64,000 nucleotides of DNA, from assembly GCA_017881245.1 (NCBI GenBank), contig JADGRC010000073.1, positions 2,500-66,499 of the forward strand, given 5' to 3'. Made by a program: the position numbers and the translations under genes. The first letter of the stretch is position 1. Every line of letters starts with the position of its first letter. This DNA is from Pseudomonadota bacterium. Lineage in GTDB: Bacteria > Myxococcota_A > Polyangia > Fen-1088. The notes beneath the pieces were generated by a model, which was not told where the DNA came from, did no database searches, and was given only the letters and a program-made list of their open reading frames with translations. This document shows positions 53,835 to 61,456 of the stretch, one piece after another.

Positions 53835-55169
53835 TCAGGCCGTAGTCCCGGGGGACGCCTTGCGGGATCTGCCGCGGCCGATCCCTTCATAGGTGAAGCC
53901 GGCGGCGCGAACCTCGGCCGGATCCCAAACGTTTCGCCCATCGAAAATGACCGGCTGACTCATGGCCTTCTTGAGGCGCTCAAAGCTCGGGCGACGGAAC
54001 TCGTTCCACTCCGTCACCAGCACCAAGGCGTCCGCTCCCTCGACGGTCTCGTAGTTCCCCTCCTCGAATCGGATACGATCACCGTAGAGCTTGCGAACCC
54101 CCGGTATGGCCACCGGATCGGTCGCCACGACCTCGGCGCCAGCCCCCAGCAACTGATCGATTAACGTGAGCGCCGGAGCCTCGCGAATGTCATCAGTCCC
54201 CGGCTTGAAGGCGAGGCCCCAGACGGCGATTCGCTTGCCCCGCAGGTTGCTACCGAAGTAGGCCAATACCTTTTCGCCCAGTCGTTGCTTCTGCGTCTCA
54301 TTGACCGCGACGACCGCTTCCAGTATCCGCAAGGAGTACCCTGCCTGCTGCCCGGTGCTGATGCAGGCTCGCAGATCCTTCGGAAAACAGCTGCCCCCGA
54401 ATCCAGGACCCGCGAACAGAAATTTGGGGCCGATGCGCGCGTCCGACCCCATGCCCTTTCGGACCAATTCGATATCGCAGCCCAGGATCTCGCACAGGTT
54501 CGCCAGATCATTCATGAACGAAATTCTCGTCGCCAACATCGAATTGGCGGCGTACTTGGTGAGCTCGGCCGACCGACGGTCCATGACCATCATCCGGTCG
54601 CTCGTGCGCGTGAAGGGAGCGTACAGGTTTCGCAAGCATTCGATGGCACGCTTGTCCTCTGCGCCGACGATCACGCGGTCCGGCTTCATGAAGTCGTTGA
54701 CGGCGTCGCCCTCCTTCAAGAACTCGGGATTGGATGCCACGGCGAATTCTTGCCGCGTCCGCTTCACCATCAGGGCCTCGATCTTGTCCCCGGTTCCCAC
54801 GGGTACGGTGGATTTGGTGACCACGACCGCCCAGCCGGTCAGCGCGTCCGCGATGCTCTCGGCCGCCTTGAAGATGAACGACAGGTCGGCCGAGCCATCG
54901 GCGCCCGGGGGTGTTCCGACGGCCAACAAGACAACCTCCGCCCCCGCGACACCGCGCGAGATGTCGGTGGTGAACTGCAAGCGGCCCTCGGCGGCGTTCC
55001 GCGCCACCAGCTTGTCCAGGCCCGGCTCGTAGATCGGCAGCTCGCCCCGGTTCAACCCATCTATCTTGTTCCGATCGACGTCGCAGCAGACGACGTCATT
55101 CCCCATGTCCGAGAACCCGGCGCCCGCGACAAGGCCCACGTAACCGGTTCCGATGACGCAGATTTTCAT
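53835..55169 (-). CDS. ugd: UDP-glucose 6-dehydrogenase
   Basis: GTGYVG, SNPEFLKEG, GFGGSCFPKD, FKPGTDDIRE. Confidence 0.96.
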   Translation of the reverse strand: MKICVIGTGYVGLVAGAGFSDMGNDVVCCDVDRNKIDGLNRGELPIYEPGLDKLVARNAAEGRLQFTTDISRGVAGAEVVLLAVGTPPGADGSADLSFIFKAAESIADALTGWAVVVTKSTVPVGTGDKIEALMVKRTRQEFAVASNPEFLKEGDAVNDFMKPDRVIVGAEDKRAIECLRNLYAPFTRTSDRMMVMDRRSAELTKYAANSMLATRISFMNDLANLCEILGCDIELVRKGMGSDARIGPKFLFAGPGFGGSCFPKDLRACISTGQQAGYSLRILEAVVAVNETQKQRLGEKVLAYFGSNLRGKRIAVWGLAFKPGTDDIREAPALTLIDQLLGAGAEVVATDPVAIPGVRKLYGDRIRFEEGNYETVEGADALVLVTEWNEFRRPSFERLKKAMSQPVIFDGRNVWDPAEVRAAGFTYEGIGRGRSRKASPGTTA

Positions 55170-55204
55170 CGCGAAAGGCATACCATGATAGCTTTCGGAA
55201 CTCG

Positions 55205-56191
55205 ATGAAGGTGATGCTGCTGGCGGCGGGCCGTAGCACGCGGCTTGGCGCTCTGGGCCGGACGCTGCCGAAACCGTTGGCGCCGATCTGTGGTTACCCC
55301 GCTATTTTGTTCGGTTTGGCGGCATGCGCGCGTGCGGGCCTGACCGAAGTGATCGTGAACCTGCATCACCATGGGGATCTCATTCGAAGCACGCTCGGCG
55401 ACGGCAGCGCCATGGGGGTCCGCGTGACCTACTCGGATGAAATCGACTTGCTGGGCACGGGCGGCGGGTTGGCCCGCGCTCGACCGTTGCTCGGTACCGG
55501 CTCCGTCGTGGTCATGAATGCCAAGGTGGTCGCCAACGTGAACCTGCAGGCGCTGATCGCTGCTCACGAAGCGTCCGGCGCCGATGCAACATTGGTCTTG
55601 CGTGACGATCCGGCCGCGCGCACCTGGGGCGCGATTTCCTCCGACGAGGACGGGCGCGTGGTCGGCATCCTCGACGCCACCTCGCCGCTCGTGCCCCGCG
55701 GGAAGATCATCGAGCGGATGTTCACCGGAATTCAGATAGTCGGTCGGCAGGTGTTGGATCGGCTGCATCCGGTGCCGTCCGATTCCGTGCGCGATGGGTA
55801 TATCCCGGCATTGCAAGACGGCGCCGATATCCGGGCAGTCGTGCTACCCGGGTATTTCGCGGAGCATTCGACGCCGGAACGTTACCTAGCGGGCAATCTT
55901 GCGCTGTTGCGTGACCCCCACCTCATCAGCCATCCGCCAGGGCCCCTGACCGGAATCGATCCCCATGCCAACATTGATCCCCGCGCCCACGTCATCGCCC
56001 CCGTTCGCATCGAAGCCGACGCGGTGATCGAGGCCAATGCCATCGTCGGCCCGGAGGTCGTTGTGGGCCGAGGCGCAATCGTCCGCTCGGGCGCCCATGT
56101 TTCCCACGCCGTCCTGTGGCCCGCCGCCGAAGTCGAGGGCAAGGTGGATAGCGCCGTCCTCCAGCCTCGTGACCCGGCCGCGTTGCTGTGA
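55205..56191 (+). CDS. NDP-sugar pyrophosphorylase (mannose-1-P guanylyltransferase-like)
   Basis: LAAGRSTRL...LPKPL, LLGTGGG, C-terminal left-handed beta-helix. Confidence 0.88.
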   Translation: MKVMLLAAGRSTRLGALGRTLPKPLAPICGYPAILFGLAACARAGLTEVIVNLHHHGDLIRSTLGDGSAMGVRVTYSDEIDLLGTGGGLARARPLLGTGSVVVMNAKVVANVNLQALIAAHEASGADATLVLRDDPAARTWGAISSDEDGRVVGILDATSPLVPRGKIIERMFTGIQIVGRQVLDRLHPVPSDSVRDGYIPALQDGADIRAVVLPGYFAEHSTPERYLAGNLALLRDPHLISHPPGPLTGIDPHANIDPRAHVIAPVRIEADAVIEANAIVGPEVVVGRGAIVRSGAHVSHAVLWPAAEVEGKVDSAVLQPRDPAALL

Positions 56192-56358
56192 TTTTGCCGG
56201 CGGGCCTCGATAGTCGGGCGCTAAATAAGGCAACTTCTCCGAAGGCCGATCATAAGGCTTTTCCAAGCATCGGGAGGCGTGGCAAAGCCGCACCCCACGC
56301 AGGAAGACCTGCCTGGGGACCCCGCGCCACGCCGGCGTTGACGGCCTGCGGGGGAGCA

Positions 56359-56393
56359 CATGAGGGGGACACCCGGGGGGACACCCCCTCATG
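56359..56393. terminator. Perfect 10-bp inverted repeat between convergent genes
   Basis: CATGAGGGGG...CCCCCTCATG; no U-tract. Confidence 0.4.
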
Positions 56394-56429
56394 GCGGCGA
56401 AGCCGCTCTGGCGAGAAAGACCGGCCCCG

Positions 56430-57536
56430 TCAGCCGCGGGGCGGAGTTGCTCCAACCCGGTGACCGCCAACTTCGGGATGCTCTGCCAGGGAACCGGGGG
56501 CACGACCGGCGGCCAGGCGGAACCGGGGGCTGCCCGGCCCACCCCACGGTTTGTCGTCCACGAGCCCGGTTCCGTAGCGCTGATGCGTCGTTTGATAACG
56601 GCCCGCCACGACCACGACCCTGTCCGGATACAGATACAGGGCGCCCACCAACCCGACCGCCTCGGCGGGCATCGCGTACGACTGATCTTCGTGCAGCACG
56701 GCGGCGCGCGGTCCAACGACGATGGGAACACGAAGGGCCAAGGCCTCAGGCGTGGTTTTCAACGGACGCAGGCGCTGCCGCTCCTCGGCCAACAAAACAG
56801 CAGGGGTTTGGTTATCGAGCTGGGCACCCTCCACGGAAACGGTGTTGTTGGTTTTCGCGACCCAGTCCTTAAGTTGGCGCTCGAGATCGACTTCGCCCGC
56901 AAAAGAGCGGTCTTTGAAGAAGCTGTTCTTGACCCAGTTTCCAAGGTTGGTCCCGAATCCGCGATCCGCGCCGCGGCGTGCCCGCACTTCCACCCCCAGG
57001 CCAAGTTGGATGGCCGCGTACGCGAAGGACGGATCCCATTCAAGGACCTGTCCATCCGCATCGGTTCTGGTGGCGACGGGCTTGGACCTATCAAAAGCCG
57101 CCAGCAGAGCAACGCCACCCATCAGTTCATAGTGACGGACCAACGACCGAACCAGAGTCTCGACGCCCTGGTCCGGCATCAGGGACACGTGGGAAAACCG
57201 TGAGTATTCCAGGCGCGAGGCCAGAAATGCGAGGGACCGGGTTTGCCCATCCATGAAACGGACATCGACCTGGCCAAGGCCATGCCGTATGACTTCGCCG
57301 GGAATTTTGTCCTGGTGACCAAGCGGCCGACTCCGCCGAGGTCTCAAACTGGCGATCACCGCGTAAAGAGCGCTTTTGCCGCCATCGTAGCCGGCGGCCT
57401 TTGCCCCGCGAACGATCTCGAGGGATTTCATCTTGGGGTTGGCGAGCAGCAGGTCCACCACAAAAGACCGAAATGGCTGCGCCTTTGAAGGCCTGCCAAC
57501 CCCCCGACCTGAGCTACGCCCTATCTGGGATTCCAT
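56430..57536 (-). CDS. IS21-family IstA transposase homologue with degenerate DDE triad and no istB
   Basis: GYDGGKSALY, PGE..RHGLG.VDV, ASRLEYSRF, AFDRSK, NLGNWVKNSFF, TPAVLLAEER..LRPL. Confidence 0.8.
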   Translation of the reverse strand: MESQIGRSSGRGVGRPSKAQPFRSFVVDLLLANPKMKSLEIVRGAKAAGYDGGKSALYAVIASLRPRRSRPLGHQDKIPGEVIRHGLGQVDVRFMDGQTRSLAFLASRLEYSRFSHVSLMPDQGVETLVRSLVRHYELMGGVALLAAFDRSKPVATRTDADGQVLEWDPSFAYAAIQLGLGVEVRARRGADRGFGTNLGNWVKNSFFKDRSFAGEVDLERQLKDWVAKTNNTVSVEGAQLDNQTPAVLLAEERQRLRPLKTTPEALALRVPIVVGPRAAVLHEDQSYAMPAEAVGLVGALYLYPDRVVVVAGRYQTTHQRYGTGLVDDKPWGGPGSPRFRLAAGRAPGSLAEHPEVGGHRVGATPPRG

Positions 57537-57546
57537 GTCGTCGCCC

Positions 57547-57587
57547 TACACGCAAAACCTGATGTCATACACGCAAAACCTGATGTC
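57547..57587. repeat. Perfect 20-bp direct repeat x2 (21-bp period)
   Basis: TACACGCAAAACCTGATGTC at 57547-57566 and 57568-57587. Confidence 0.95.
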
Positions 57588-57670
57588 TTTTGCCCGCGAT
57601 TGTTCGTCCCGTCAAGTACTTTCTGCCTGACTACTCTCGCCCCTGAACGGGTTTGTGAAACGCGATGCGT

Positions 57671-58747
57671 CTAGGCGTCGTGTAGCGGCGAGAGAGCTAA
57701 ATCACGGCGTGCGTCCCTACGCTCGACCGCTAGATCGACCAGCCTGTCCACCAGATCGGGAAGCGGCAACCCTGACGCCTCCCACATCTTGGGATACCCA
57801 GAAAGCGAGGTGAATCCGGGCAGGGTGTTCACCTCGTTGACGAAGAGCTCGCCGGTCTTGCGGTCCAGGAAGAAATCGACTCGCGCCATGCTCGAAAGTT
57901 CCAAGGCCCGAAATGTGGCGATGCTGAGCGCGCGGATGCGCTCGATCCGCGCGGCGGTGAGATCGGCGGGAATCTGGAAGACCGCCCCGTTGGGGTCCAC
58001 GTACTTCGCGTCGTAAGAGTAAAAACCATCCTTGTGCGTCAGCACGATTTCGCCCGGTGTGGACGCGATCGGATCGTCGTTGCCCAGCACCGCACACTCG
58101 ATTTCCCGAGCGTCAATGGCCCGTTCCAACAGCACCTTCCGATCGAATCGCAAGGCCGCCATCAGGGCGGGGCCCAAATCACTCGGGCGGGCGACGCGCG
58201 CGACGCCAACCGAAGAGCCGGCGTTGGCGGGTTTGCAGAACAGGGGATAGCCAAGATCGGCCCCCTTCACGAGACACGCGCTCGGGTCACGAGAAAAGTC
58301 GTGCGCCCTTACCAGACGGAAGTCCACGACGGGGATCCCCGCGTCGCGAAGCAGGCGCTTGGCCACTTCCTTGTCCATCCCGATCGCAGAACCCAGCACC
58401 CCGGCACCGACATAGGCCACGTCGGCCAGCTCCAAAAGTCCCTGAACGGTTCCGTCCTCGCCATAGGTCCCGTGCAACATGGGAATGACGACGTCGCCCG
58501 GTCGCAGGATGCCGGTGTCGACGACGGGCGCGCGATCGTCGAGGCGCACGTGACGAGGATCGCCGTGCGCCCCGTCCAACGTGGCGGGAGATTCCAACCT
58601 CCATCGGCCACCCTTGTCGATGCCGACCAGCACCGGTTCGTACCGATCGCGGTCGAGCGCACGGTACACGTTGCGCGCGGAGAGCACGGAGATCTCGTGC
58701 TCGGCGGATCGGCCGCCAAACAGGATGACCAAACGGACGGCGGTCAT
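57671..58747 (-). CDS. ddl: D-alanine--D-alanine ligase
   Basis: FGGRSAEHEIS, LHGTYGEDG, KPANAGSSVG, FYSYDAKY, NEVNTLPGFT. Confidence 0.96.
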   Translation of the reverse strand: MTAVRLVILFGGRSAEHEISVLSARNVYRALDRDRYEPVLVGIDKGGRWRLESPATLDGAHGDPRHVRLDDRAPVVDTGILRPGDVVIPMLHGTYGEDGTVQGLLELADVAYVGAGVLGSAIGMDKEVAKRLLRDAGIPVVDFRLVRAHDFSRDPSACLVKGADLGYPLFCKPANAGSSVGVARVARPSDLGPALMAALRFDRKVLLERAIDAREIECAVLGNDDPIASTPGEIVLTHKDGFYSYDAKYVDPNGAVFQIPADLTAARIERIRALSIATFRALELSSMARVDFFLDRKTGELFVNEVNTLPGFTSLSGYPKMWEASGLPLPDLVDRLVDLAVERRDARRDLALSPLHDA

Positions 58748-60186
58748 TTTTCCCCGAGCACGGCGTGCAAGGGACGATTGAAAGCCCGTATCGCGAGTCC
58801 CGCCCCCACACCGAGGACGGTGAGCAGGAGGAAGAACGCCTCCTTCGGCCAACGGGTGTAAAGCACTCCGATCGCGCCGCTCAGAAAATTTCCGAGGAAG
58901 CTGGAGGCCAGCCACATCCCCATCATCATGGACACGATTCGCGCCGGGGATACCTTGGTGACCAACGACAATCCGATGGGGGAAAGATAGAGTTCACCGA
59001 CCGTCAGAAGCAACACGCACAGCATGGGCCAGGCGGGGCTTCCTTTTCCATCGCCGATGAGCCGCGCGCCCACGATCATCACGATGAAGGACAGGCCGAG
59101 AATCACACAACCAATGGCCATCTTGGTGACGCTGGTGGGCTCCGTGCCTCGACGCGACTGCCGCATCCAAAACATATCCAGCACGGGCGCGAAGAGAATA
59201 ATCATGAGGGGGTTGAACGATTGAAACCAGGTCGATGGAATCTGGAACCCAAATACCTTGGGCCAAACCGTCTGAGAATCCGCCCAGCTTTGCATGGTGT
59301 TACCCTGCTGTTCGTAGACGGCCCAGAACACCACGTTCAACGCGCACAGCAAGATCAGCGCCCCCACGCGCTTTCTTTCGTCGGAATCGAGCGGCTGCTT
59401 CTCGGTTTTGTGGGCCGCCCTTCGCTTGCTGAGATCGTCGGACGCCAGGTGCTTTCCCCCGGCCAAATAGACGGCGAGACCGAGGAGCATACCCACGCCC
59501 GCGGCGGCGAAACCGTAGTGCCAGCCGAAGACTGCGGCCAGAGTGCCGCACACCAAGTTGGAGATGAAAGCGCCGAGGTTGATTCCCATGTAGAAAATGG
59601 TGTAGGCGCCGTCCCGCCGCGGGTCCCCGGGCGGATAGAGCCCCCCGACCTGCGTCGACACGTTGGGTTTGAACGCACCGTTCCCCAAAATGAGCAACAC
59701 CAAGGCGACAAAGAACGAGCTTTCGACCGCCATCACGAAATGGCCGAGGGCCATGAGAACAGCACCCACGATGACGGTCCGCCTCTGACCGAGCCACCGA
59801 TCCGCGAGCAGGCCCCCGAAAAAGGGGGTCGCGTACACGAGCCCGGTGTAGGTGCCGTACAAAATCGATGCGGCCTCGGCCGGATGTTGTGGAAACCATC
59901 CCTGAAGGACGCTCCAGAACAATATGTCGTGCGGATTGCCCGGGACCAAAGCGCAGGGCGGCGCGTTCTGGCGGCAACCCTGCAGCGCCTCGCGCAACGT
60001 GACGAAAAGGTAGTTTGCCATGTAAAGCTTGAGCAAACCCCTCATGCCGTAGTAGCTGAACCGCTCCCACATTTCGGTGAAGAACAGGATCACCAGGCCA
60101 GGAGGATGCCGGAAGCGCTCCTCGAACGCGGTCATCGGAACGGGGCGATCCGTGGAGGTCGAGGCGGGGGTTGAGGACTCAGGCAT
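58744..60186 (-). CDS. POT/PTR proton-dependent oligopeptide transporter
   Basis: EMWERFSYYG, FKPN, FYMGINLG, FQSFNP, GELYLSP. Confidence 0.95.
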   Translation of the reverse strand: MPESSTPASTSTDRPVPMTAFEERFRHPPGLVILFFTEMWERFSYYGMRGLLKLYMANYLFVTLREALQGCRQNAPPCALVPGNPHDILFWSVLQGWFPQHPAEAASILYGTYTGLVYATPFFGGLLADRWLGQRRTVIVGAVLMALGHFVMAVESSFFVALVLLILGNGAFKPNVSTQVGGLYPPGDPRRDGAYTIFYMGINLGAFISNLVCGTLAAVFGWHYGFAAAGVGMLLGLAVYLAGGKHLASDDLSKRRAAHKTEKQPLDSDERKRVGALILLCALNVVFWAVYEQQGNTMQSWADSQTVWPKVFGFQIPSTWFQSFNPLMIILFAPVLDMFWMRQSRRGTEPTSVTKMAIGCVILGLSFIVMIVGARLIGDGKGSPAWPMLCVLLLTVGELYLSPIGLSLVTKVSPARIVSMMMGMWLASSFLGNFLSGAIGVLYTRWPKEAFFLLLTVLGVGAGLAIRAFNRPLHAVLGEK

Positions 60187-60274
60187 CGACAACAAACGTT
60201 ACACCGATGAACGAAGACGGCAAATACCCCAGGGCACAGAACCGGGACAGAGGACTCGCGAGGCTATCGGGTAT

Positions 60275-61456
60275 TCATTTCTTGCCGGGAGCCGCAGCCG
60301 TCGCTGCCCGGGCGTCAACTAGATCTCCGCGCAAGGGGATCGATCCCACCACGCGATTGACCAGCGCCTGCACGTCCTTCGGATCCTCGGCGTCCAGATC
60401 CAAATCCTCGCGCAGATGCCACAGCACGCGTCCGTCGGCGGCATTCACCAGAGTCATGCTCAGGTACATCTGGTCGCCGCCAAACAATTCGTCCTCGTGC
60501 TGAACTTGTCCTTCGTGCGTGTACGCGGGGCCGTCGAGGGGAACCATGAAGCCCACCCCGAAACCGACACCGACATGGGGACCGCCGGAGCCGTAAACCC
60601 GTCTGGGGCCGCCTGCCGCGATTGGCCTCGGCCCCGGTCCGCGGCCCACCGGCGTCGGTCCACGCGTGGCGCCCGCCGCCGACATACCGGGGGCGGGCCC
60701 ACGACCAGCGATGGGTGGTGCGCCGCGCATGGGTGGCGCGGCGACAGAACTGGTATTGCTGCCGCCGTTCCGGCCCGGCTGGCCACCGCCGCGGCCTCCA
60801 CTCTTGCTTTCCGCAAGAACGGCTAAGACGATGAGTGCGATCACGACGACGAAGAAAATGATCTGCGCCGCGCGTTTGCCATCGGATGTGGTGACCCCCT
60901 TGAGGTTGACGTACAGCAGGGAATCCGACCGGGTCGCCCAGCCGATCTTCGCCGCCAAATCGGGAGCGATTATTTCCGCTGTCGTCAGGGATCCCTGTTG
61001 GGCGCCCGCCGGACCGTTGGCGAATTGCAGGATGCTGTTCGCCATTGCCGCCAACTCGTCGCGGCCCACCAAGACCTGCCCGTCCTGACCGACAACACCG
61101 TCCCAACGCGCCGACAAATCCAGATCGTAGCCGCGCTGACGAAACGCCTCCGTGGAGAATTTTACCACCTCGCCGAAGACCGCCTGCCGCAGCGCCTCGG
61201 ATTTCGCGGGATCGTTGTCGCCCACTTGGTCCAACACCATGAACACGTCCGGGGGCAGCAGGGCGATCCGAATCGGCGTGTACGTCCGCGCCGCGAACGA
61301 TGGCTCGATGGCCGGTCTTGGCCCGGTGGCACAGCTCGCCGACCAGGCGGTGACCGCCACCGTGATCGCAAGGCCGGAATGCCGCAACAGGGTGAGCGGG
61401 GAATGCGATGGACGCGATGACACGACGGCCGAGCCTAGCGCAACGTTCAACCTCAC
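60275..61456 (-). CDS. Hypothetical lipoprotein with internal TM helix and Gly/Pro-rich linker
   Basis: SASC lipobox-like; IALLPPD motif. Confidence 0.65.
   Translation of the reverse strand: MRLNVALGSAVVSSRPSHSPLTLLRHSGLAITVAVTAWSASCATGPRPAIEPSFAARTYTPIRIALLPPDVFMVLDQVGDNDPAKSEALRQAVFGEVVKFSTEAFRQRGYDLDLSARWDGVVGQDGQVLVGRDELAAMANSILQFANGPAGAQQGSLTTAEIIAPDLAAKIGWATRSDSLLYVNLKGVTTSDGKRAAQIIFFVVVIALIVLAVLAESKSGGRGGGQPGRNGGSNTSSVAAPPMRGAPPIAGRGPAPGMSAAGATRGPTPVGRGPGPRPIAAGGPRRVYGSGGPHVGVGFGVGFMVPLDGPAYTHEGQVQHEDELFGGDQMYLSMTLVNAADGRVLWHLREDLDLDAEDPKDVQALVNRVVGSIPLRGDLVDARAATAAAPGKK

Follow-up and report, generated by a model that had tools for sequence, protein, structure and literature searches.

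Background

In eukaryotes, new genes that arose from domesticated DDE transposases are textbook knowledge; transposase genes of bacteria are generally taken to be active or else in decay, and a domesticated transposase that serves as a cellular protein is a rare case in bacteria. Here we describe a gene that lies at 56430-57536, on the minus strand, of a 64,000-nucleotide stretch (hereafter the window) from contig JADGRC010000073.1 of assembly GCA_017881245.1, a genome of a soil myxobacterium (Polyangia) known only from metagenome bins, and that encodes a relative of IstA, the transposase of IS21 elements. An earlier reading made from the letters of the window alone (the original prediction) had taken the gene for an exapted rather than a decaying transposase, and had proposed to check this by locating the DDE positions in an alignment, by searching for syntenic orthologues, by estimating the ratio of nonsynonymous to synonymous substitution rates (dN/dS) and by predicting the structure. 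On the evidence reported below, the gene is very probably a domesticated (exapted) IS21-family transposase.

The closest described system is the IS21 element itself. The IS21 transpososome structure has been solved (IS5376 IstA, PDB 8B4H and 8Q4D), so that each lost or retained part can be read mechanistically. The cited passages on IS5376 describe an IstA composed of two domains of the helix-turn-helix kind, HTH-1 (residues 1-39) and HTH-2 (55-104), a DDE domain (120-285) with the catalytic residues D124, D187 and E233, a beta-barrel (300-355) and a C-terminus that is flexible beyond the barrel (PMC10122671). HTH-2 reads one conserved half of each terminal repeat and HTH-1 the other, the linker between them sits in the AT-rich minor groove between the two sites, the upper IstA subunits dimerise through their DDE domains, and mutation of any single triad residue nearly abolishes activity and integration, according to the same passages (PMC10122671). 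IstA needs IstB to become active, and the DDE domain and beta-barrel are described as the parts that mediate contacts between IstA subunits as well as with IstB (PMC10122671, PMC11208146). From the linker on, the window's protein shows the same order of HTH-2, RNase H-like domain and beta-barrel. It differs in lacking the first catalytic Asp, the catalytic Glu, HTH-1 and a C-terminal extension of about 100-140 amino acids; its gene has neither istB nor terminal repeats beside it, and is single-copy, syntenic and vertically inherited.

Outside IS21, the nearest bacterial concept is, by analogy, that of the TldR proteins, nuclease-dead bacterial repressors derived from TnpB, in which a nucleic-acid enzyme of a transposon is described as having lost catalysis and been domesticated with its DNA targeting kept (PMC10705468). 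TldRs differ in fold and ancestor (RuvC/TnpB), are RNA-guided and have a demonstrated function (PMC10705468), whereas the role of the window's protein is a proposed one. The nearest structural analogy would be CENP-B, which is reported to share the tandem-HTH arrangement with IstA (PMC10122671). Like the window's protein, CENP-B descends from a DDE transposase, lacks a working triad and is kept as a host DNA-binding protein; unlike it, CENP-B is eukaryotic, derives from a pogo/Tc1-like element and not from IS21, and keeps both N-terminal DNA-binding domains, the first of which the family described here has lost.

A further comparison is offered by the inhibitor protein (Inh) of Tn5, which poisons the Tn5 transposase and which is made from the active element's own gene, being identical to the transposase except that it lacks the N-terminal DNA-binding part. 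The window's protein is likewise a transposase form without an N-terminal DNA-binding part, but is the product of a separate, diverged chromosomal gene. A full-text literature search, outside which subscription journals and supplements lay, found no published description of a domesticated IstA, and a term search of a review of mobile-element recruitment in prokaryotes met neither 'IS21' nor 'DDE' (PMC8987985).

Results and Discussion

An IstA homologue without its catalytic triad

The open reading frame (ORF) has an ATG start, runs through 368 codons without interruption, as had been predicted with no mention of the strand, and closes with a stop codon at 56430-56432; all parts of the gene given below are likewise on the minus strand. 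Its 368-amino-acid product matches the NCBIfam model NF033546 ('IS21 family transposase') at E 9.9e-27, residues 14-259 being aligned with profile positions 45-292 of 294; the score of 94.2 bits does not reach the curated cut-off of 160 bits, and the match is to be read as homology without equivalog status. The solved IS5376 IstA (8b4h, 8q4d) matches at E 2e-11, with residues 12-232 facing IstA 49-269, and a search of the ESM Atlas brought back only IstA-like clusters with PF22483 or rve. Judged by these matches, the product is an IS21 IstA homologue. Rfam returned no match, a guide RNA being neither expected nor seen, and the GC content across the locus (0.60-0.68) is ordinary for a genome at 0.64.

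The equivalents of the catalytic residues were found by counting along the residue-by-residue alignment with IS5376 IstA. D124 faces G86 (context RHGLG; codon GGC, 57279-57281), D187 faces D149 (AFDR; codon GAT, 57090-57092) and E233 faces T196 (GFGTN; codon ACC, 56949-56951), so that the protein carries G-D-T in place of D-D-E; these are the three contexts, with the middle Asp as sole survivor, that the original prediction had picked out. An alignment of 44 family members (A1) shows no variation at H85-G86, F148-D149-R150, G195 and N197, while at least 90% of its rows keep T196, as do 15 of 16 orthologous loci, the remaining one (L016) having Leu. Nearly all positions of the loop at about 185-201 are invariant or near-invariant, and no stretch of the protein is better conserved than the loop at the former active site. 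That the replacement residues are themselves conserved argues against drift.

The retained parts can be followed along the chain. A counterpart of HTH-1 is missing, which had been overlooked in the original prediction: the first 45 or so profile positions of NF033546, those of HTH-1, are unmatched, the protein begins inside the inter-HTH linker, and the distance between the ddl stop codon and the ATG, only 134 nt, leaves no room for HTH-1 upstream. At three loci of one genus (L006-L008) the frame stays open for a further 45-90 codons or so upstream of the conserved G-R-P-S-K motif and offers a possible earlier start (MK..), and the N-terminus of the family is therefore variable. Residues 12-22 (57471-57503) are the kept end of the linker, a minor-groove binder in IstA; its core, G-R-P-S-K, is nearly invariant in the family and common to the nearest active IstA. 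Profile and IstA alignments, conservation and the AlphaFold2 model agree on an HTH-2-like three-helix domain at residues 20-64 or so (57345-57479), whose recognition-helix motif GGKSALY is invariant in the 44 rows. HTH-2 and the linker end are thus what is left of the tandem-HTH arrangement of IstA. They are followed by an RNase H-like (DDE-fold) domain without the triad (residues ~83-253, 56778-57290; IstA alignment, AlphaFold2, Foldseek), which includes a predicted dimer helix at 167-183 and a near-invariant Arg-rich loop at 185-201, and by a beta-barrel (residues ~268-319, 56580-56735; AlphaFold2, Foldseek, ESM Atlas), the counterpart of domain II-beta of IstA and MuA. Beyond the barrel similarity fades, as predicted: residues 322-368 (56433-56573) form an unconserved and predicted-disordered tail, with a predicted local distance difference test (pLDDT) value below 50, where active relatives have a helical extension of about 100-140 amino acids.

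No other part of an IS21 element

The downstream neighbour is a convergent nucleotidyltransferase gene, so the position of istB is not filled by istB. Across the whole 6.17-Mb bin the best match to the IstB model PF01695, a model that also fires in 13 of 14 control genomes, scored 24.5 bits on another contig, and none rose above the AAA+ background; nor were istB remnants found downstream of the gene in two orthologous loci. No flanking inverted repeats of IS21 type were found around the gene, and the terminal-repeat motif of the nearest active elements, allowing 3 mismatches, has 6 matches in the window against 7.6 expected, none of them at 55-59 kb. The missing istB and the missing element end had both been part of the original prediction, and both hold. 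Searched against its own genome, the protein gave a single match, and no second copy was found. With the triad lost, and with IstB needed by IstA, transposition by this protein is excluded for practical purposes.

Two transposase pieces elsewhere in the same genome make a useful contrast to the conserved IstA-derived gene. A decayed IS21 istA fragment on a 4-kb contig (C37, 2877-3170) encodes 118 amino acids, HTH-1 and HTH-2 only, and then meets a stop; the other piece is an IS3-type rve transposase (C216, 84-287).

Orthologues, synteny and selection

Among 61 relatives searched, 16 genomes carry a full or nearly full match (E ≤ 6e-111, 56-79% identity), one each, and one further genome has a fragment at a contig end. 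The other matches in these relatives are 22-29% identical and lie in open frames of mostly about 500 amino acids, which fits ordinary IstA. The frame is open in all 16 complete orthologous loci. Over the Polyangia family to which the window's genome belongs, 48 of 89 genomes match at E ≤ 1e-60, each with exactly one copy, and presence and absence are clean by genus: the gene was found in 8 of 19 genera (3/3 in addition to the window's genome, 25/26, 7/8, 4/5, 4/5, 2/2, 1/1 and 1/1) and not in the others (0/13, 0/11, 0/3, 0/2, 0/2 and six at 0/1); the genomes are incomplete bins, and 'not found' therefore does not equal 'absent'. In a collection of 5.8 billion proteins, 352 of the 8000 candidates scored matched at E ≤ 0.001; the best 119 of these, the query excluded, are 59-85% identical and 313-390 amino acids long. 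Their database labels are 'hypothetical protein' or 'transposase', and among the source names 'Polyangia bacterium' appears three times.

In the window, ddl (D-Ala-D-Ala ligase; 57671-58915, minus strand), the syntenic anchor, lies directly upstream on the same strand. It has this place in 16 of 17 orthologous loci, L002 being the exception and L012 holding only the end of ddl on its contig. A dehydrogenase gene is found downstream in 12 of the 17. Four loci from metagenome-assembled genomes (MAGs) named 'Polyangia bacterium' repeat the block of POT transporter, ddl, IstA-derived gene, dehydrogenase and nucleotidyltransferase, with ddl directly upstream in three and the gene at the very start of the contig in the fourth. 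IS21 elements occur in several copies or at variable positions; this gene, single-copy in 48 genomes and nearly always next to ddl, has the single-copy syntenic orthologues across taxa that a domesticated gene would be expected to have.

Trees of the gene (16 rows) and of Ddl (14 rows) agree on the deepest split, {g1, g9, g14} against {g2, g8, g11, g4, g15}, with support in the Shimodaira-Hasegawa-like approximate likelihood ratio test (SH-aLRT) of 98 and 99, and within each tree all genera that have several rows are clades. The gene products are 59-81% and the Ddl proteins 63-81% identical to those of the window, and the median end branch is shorter for the gene (0.089 against 0.21). The agreement of the trees and the similar identities form a pattern of vertical inheritance.

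Selection was estimated by the Nei-Gojobori method on 120 pairs, 115 of which were usable for the conserved core. The core has a median dN/dS of 0.198, with 0.093 for the linker and HTH-2, 0.28 for the DDE-fold part and 0.195 for the beta-barrel, values which the high dS makes rough, though their direction is clear; in one pair dN is 0.009 against a dS of 0.73. Over the last 50 or so columns the corresponding ratio of differences per site (pN/pS) is 1.07, and this tail appears to drift neutrally. The coding sequence of the core is thus under purifying selection, as expected of a domesticated gene.

These data also bear on the simplest alternative, that the ORF is a decaying IS21 relic or a long chance frame in GC-rich DNA. 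In its favour, no Pfam family is reported, the NCBIfam score lies below the cut-off, and the genome does hold a truly decayed IS21 fragment, the 118 amino acids on C37 that end in a stop; but a frame open in 16 of 16 complete loci, a single-copy and syntenic position across eight genera, a dN/dS of 0.2 and a fold predicted with confidence leave this reading extremely improbable and, by the comparative data, already contradicted. The preference of the original prediction for exaptation over decay is borne out, and each of the checks it had proposed came down on that side: the alignment gives G-D-T and no D-D-E, single-copy syntenic orthologues with the same substitutions exist in 8 of 19 genera of one Polyangia family, the median dN/dS of the core is 0.20 against about 1 in the tail, and the predicted fold, described below, is IstA-like.

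Nearest active relatives

A full HMMER search of 1.84 billion representatives gave 1417 proteins at E ≤ 0.001, 126 of them at E ≤ 1e-30. The closest intact relatives are 37-47% identical to the window's protein; they have HTH-1, continue for 100-140 residues past the barrel and carry a D-D-E triad, set in SQHDFG, VFDRP and KGSVENLV. D-D-E is likewise present in 74 of the 80 loci of the genome-contig scan. The elements of this active subgroup, hosted by MAGs of the Acidobacteriota, Gemmatimonadota and Myxococcota, measure 2.43 kb, are multi-copy and contain istB; their ends start with TG and bear two direct repeats at a distance of 27 bp. The window's protein shows 40-47% identity to them across all of the core that it retains; it shares their G-R-P-S-K linker and GGKSA-Y recognition helix, so that the recognition-helix motif of HTH-2 is the same, and keeps the second Asp. 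The subgroup differs from it in having D-D-E, HTH-1, istB, TG ends, direct repeats and many copies. Active 2.43-kb elements of the subgroup were seen at L032 (3865-6297) and L107 (1577-4011); one Myxococcota genome holds four copies, the three compared being more than 99.7% identical, and single Acidobacteriota MAGs hold many.

One rival reading is a host-encoded transposition inhibitor, a role that the original prediction had suggested alongside that of a transcription regulator: an N-terminally truncated and inactive IstA that would enter the IstA tetramers of an invading IS21, or occupy its IstB or its element ends, and poison it as Inh does the Tn5 transposase. The loss of HTH-1 with the dimer surface of the DDE domain and the beta-barrel kept, the predicted homodimer and the recognition motif held in common with the nearest active subgroup would all suit a protein of this kind. 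However, identity to the nearest active IstA does not exceed 40-47%, a search of the 61 relatives turned up no element of that subgroup, their other IstA matches being 22-29% identical, and IstA matches are few in genomes with and without the gene alike. The protein is conserved about as well as Ddl, whereas a factor engaged in conflict with mobile elements would be expected to show another pattern, and we regard an inhibitor as unlikely.

Predicted fold and dimer

The AlphaFold2 model, built on the 44-row alignment, has a mean pLDDT of 80.8 and shows, between disordered ends (1-10 and 327-361), three helices (20-64), then a domain of mixed alpha/beta structure (82-253) and lastly a barrel of six strands (268-319). 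Foldseek searches of the PDB with this model place IstA chains first (8b4h_C, E 3.4e-17, 335 columns), followed by TnsB, MuA and retroviral integrases; the predicted protein thus has the RNase H-like domain followed by a beta-barrel that marks IstA. A homodimer is predicted with a score of 0.75, against 0.01 for the best control, by a tool whose mark was reached in calibration by 20 of 30 proteins solved as pairs and by 1 of 23 solved as single chains. Between runs, at least 54% of the contacts are the same, and the pLDDT is at least 81. The predicted interface is symmetric, is centred on residues 144-145 and 167-183, and includes the invariant residues W167, D168, F171, A172, G179 and G181. 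A DDE/DDE dimer of IstA has been solved, so the score may merely reflect likeness to, or memory of, that complex.

Some domesticated eukaryotic transposases cut or join nucleic acid for their host. The window's protein could do the same if a metal site had been rebuilt from D149 and other conserved acidic residues, for which the invariance of D149, the invariance or near-invariance of E110, E126, D168, E183, E251 and E252, and the exceptional conservation of the loop at the old active site might be cited. Yet two of the three carboxylates are replaced, by Gly in all family members and by Thr in at least 90% of them, and mutation of any single one is reported to nearly abolish the activity of IstA (PMC10122671). 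All three triad positions, furthermore, vary freely across the wider clade described below, which fits a general loss of catalysis, and a surviving enzyme seems to us decidedly improbable.

A putative non-cutting DNA binder

We propose that an IstA gene of the subgroup with the G-R-P-S-K linker would have become fixed downstream of ddl in the ancestor of part of one Polyangia family, and would then have lost istB, the element ends, two of the three catalytic carboxylates, HTH-1 and the C-terminal helical extension. As the sequence comparisons show it, the gene has since passed down by vertical inheritance in one copy, as a gene of the host, and purifying selection acts on it about as strongly as on Ddl; alignment and model show the minor-groove linker motif, HTH-2, the RNase H-like fold and the beta-barrel to be retained. 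A dimer of the protein would bind DNA without cutting it, each subunit contributing its linker and HTH-2, the cleft that was once the active site, with its invariant Arg-rich loop, may provide an extra surface for nucleic acid or a partner, and the role would be that of a site-specific regulator or an architectural protein. Because the strongest constraint falls on the linker and HTH-2, and then on the dimer helix and the Arg-rich loop, a non-cutting dimeric DNA binder is the most economical reading. A non-catalytic role in DNA binding is the option that we slightly favour, and the explanation as a whole, domestication together with the proposed mechanism, we consider reasonably probable.

The conserved neighbourhood (POT-ddl-X-UDPGDH/NTP-transferase) and the loss of HTH-1 might instead suggest a protein scaffold without any role at DNA, which would make contacts with, for example, the cell-envelope or nucleotide-sugar enzymes encoded nearby. 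Against this stand the constraint on the linker and HTH-2, which is the strongest in the protein (dN/dS 0.093), and a DNA-recognition helix motif unchanged from that of active transposases; the synteny is more simply explained by the ancestral insertion site. We judge a pure scaffold to be improbable.

Several results weigh against the explanation proposed above, domestication and mechanism taken together. A check of 21 runs brought up no RNA run that contains the locus. Searches with the 368-amino-acid protein found no Pfam family even at E ≤ 1 and no PADLOC defence-protein family at E ≤ 0.01, and so give no hint of function. Synonymous divergence between the orthologues is near saturation (median dS 1.15). 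An empty-site test on five genomes of gene-less genera found ddl present but different DNA downstream of it in each (GNAT/PGK, an HDOD response regulator, and others), and thus, among these five, no clean pre-insertion site for a single insertion event. HTH-1, which is described as supplying half of the sequence-specific contacts in IstA (PMC10122671), is lost, so that specific DNA binding is not assured. Finally, a motif upstream of the gene, described in the next section, was not found elsewhere in the 6.17-Mb genome, so that no regulon can be proposed, and its likeness to the terminal repeats of active elements is not significant (5 mismatches in 14).

Upstream motif and neighbouring genes

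A perfect 20-nt unit, missed by the original prediction, occurs in two copies at 21-nt spacing at 57547-57587 and ends 10 nt before the ATG. This perfect 21-bp tandem duplication is found only in the window's genome; a single copy of a related motif stands 12-17 nt before the start codon at seven loci of three genera, and more distant genera have related forms. A relic of an element end was considered as its source and rejected: the terminal repeats of active relatives match at 9 of 14 positions and in the opposite orientation, and the motifs of the orthologues resemble these repeats even less than the window's copy does. Autoregulation at this conserved motif, upstream of the gene's own start, can be imagined, and we think it rather doubtful. 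A scan of 56100-57800 for sigma-70-like promoters gave no site. No obvious Shine-Dalgarno-like sequence precedes the ATG, and the mRNA may therefore be leaderless or very short-leadered; a hexamer that contains TAT and lies about 6 nt ahead of the start codon may be the -10 box of a leaderless mRNA. At the other end of the gene, a weak terminator-like hairpin lies over the stop codon (56424-56442, minus strand), one of 3 such sites found against 2.0 expected.

The IstA-derived gene is flanked, as had been predicted, by ddl and by an NDP-sugar nucleotidyltransferase gene (NTP_transferase and hexapeptide repeats; 55205-56191, plus strand), which is convergent with it. A UDP-glucose/GDP-mannose dehydrogenase gene (53835-55181, minus strand) is a conserved downstream neighbour in most genera, and a POT-family peptide transporter gene (58744-60195, minus strand) upstream of ddl belongs to the conserved block. 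In the genus of the window, the divergent pair of dehydrogenase and nucleotidyltransferase (53835-56191) has the opposite orientation to that in other genera (compare L095, 6589-8856), so that in the window the nucleotidyltransferase and not the dehydrogenase faces the IstA-derived gene. Upstream of the POT transporter, an ORF of 393 amino acids (60275-61456, minus strand) has no Pfam or PADLOC family.

A wider clade of triad-less IstA derivatives

Of 151 representative rows, 111 cover the three triad sites, 49 with D-D-E and 62 without. Many of these 62 are fragments or look frameshifted, and trees were therefore relied on instead. Among 41 near-full-length representatives 19 are without D-D-E, 18 of which fall into one clade of a quick tree (SH-aLRT 97), and in a maximum-likelihood tree of 60 rows one clade holds 26 of the 28 non-DDE rows (ultrafast bootstrap 97, SH-aLRT 100). 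This clade nests among intact IstA, with a poorly resolved sister group, and includes the window's family. Two rows fall outside it, P0124 and P0150; both group with intact sequences and may be cases of recent decay. Neither the 61 relatives nor a sample of 401 genomes of the phylum yielded any of the other triad-less lineages.

All members of the triad-less clade end within about 50 residues of the barrel, most within 20, having lost the C-terminal extension, and their triad positions are occupied by G/E/D/A/H, D/R/E/F/I/T/S and T/E/D/L/Q/A, respectively. About half of them keep an N-terminus of a size to include HTH-1, which the other subfamilies have lost. Two that keep HTH-1 lie without istB and divergent from a histidine kinase gene, with E-R-E at the triad positions in a Polyangiaceae MAG (L027, 3902-5104) and G-D-E in a 'delta proteobacterium' MAG (L044, 3992-5116); a sigma-54 activator adjoins the former.

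What is new here is that the family belongs to a supported clade, an offshoot of active IS21 elements made up of short IstA derivatives without the triad. A single old domestication of IstA, which would have radiated into a family of non-catalytic DNA-binding proteins in the Myxococcota and perhaps beyond, is a tentative extension that we hold to be somewhat less likely than not: long branches and shared relaxation could inflate the grouping, and one domestication followed by radiation is therefore possible, not shown.

Conclusion

Databases label proteins of this kind 'hypothetical protein' or 'transposase', and Pfam does not detect them. By its single copy, its synteny, its co-divergence with ddl, its low dN/dS and its conserved catalytic replacements, the locus described here is a clean bacterial counter-example to the expectation that a transposase gene is either active or decaying. 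If a radiation from one domestication did take place, the triad-less clade would be a new family of bacterial DNA-binding proteins, and a natural experiment on the IstA scaffold without catalysis, HTH-1 and IstB. Bacteria would then possess a family of regulators that arose from a DDE transposase, a counterpart to the eukaryotic transcription factors of transposase origin.

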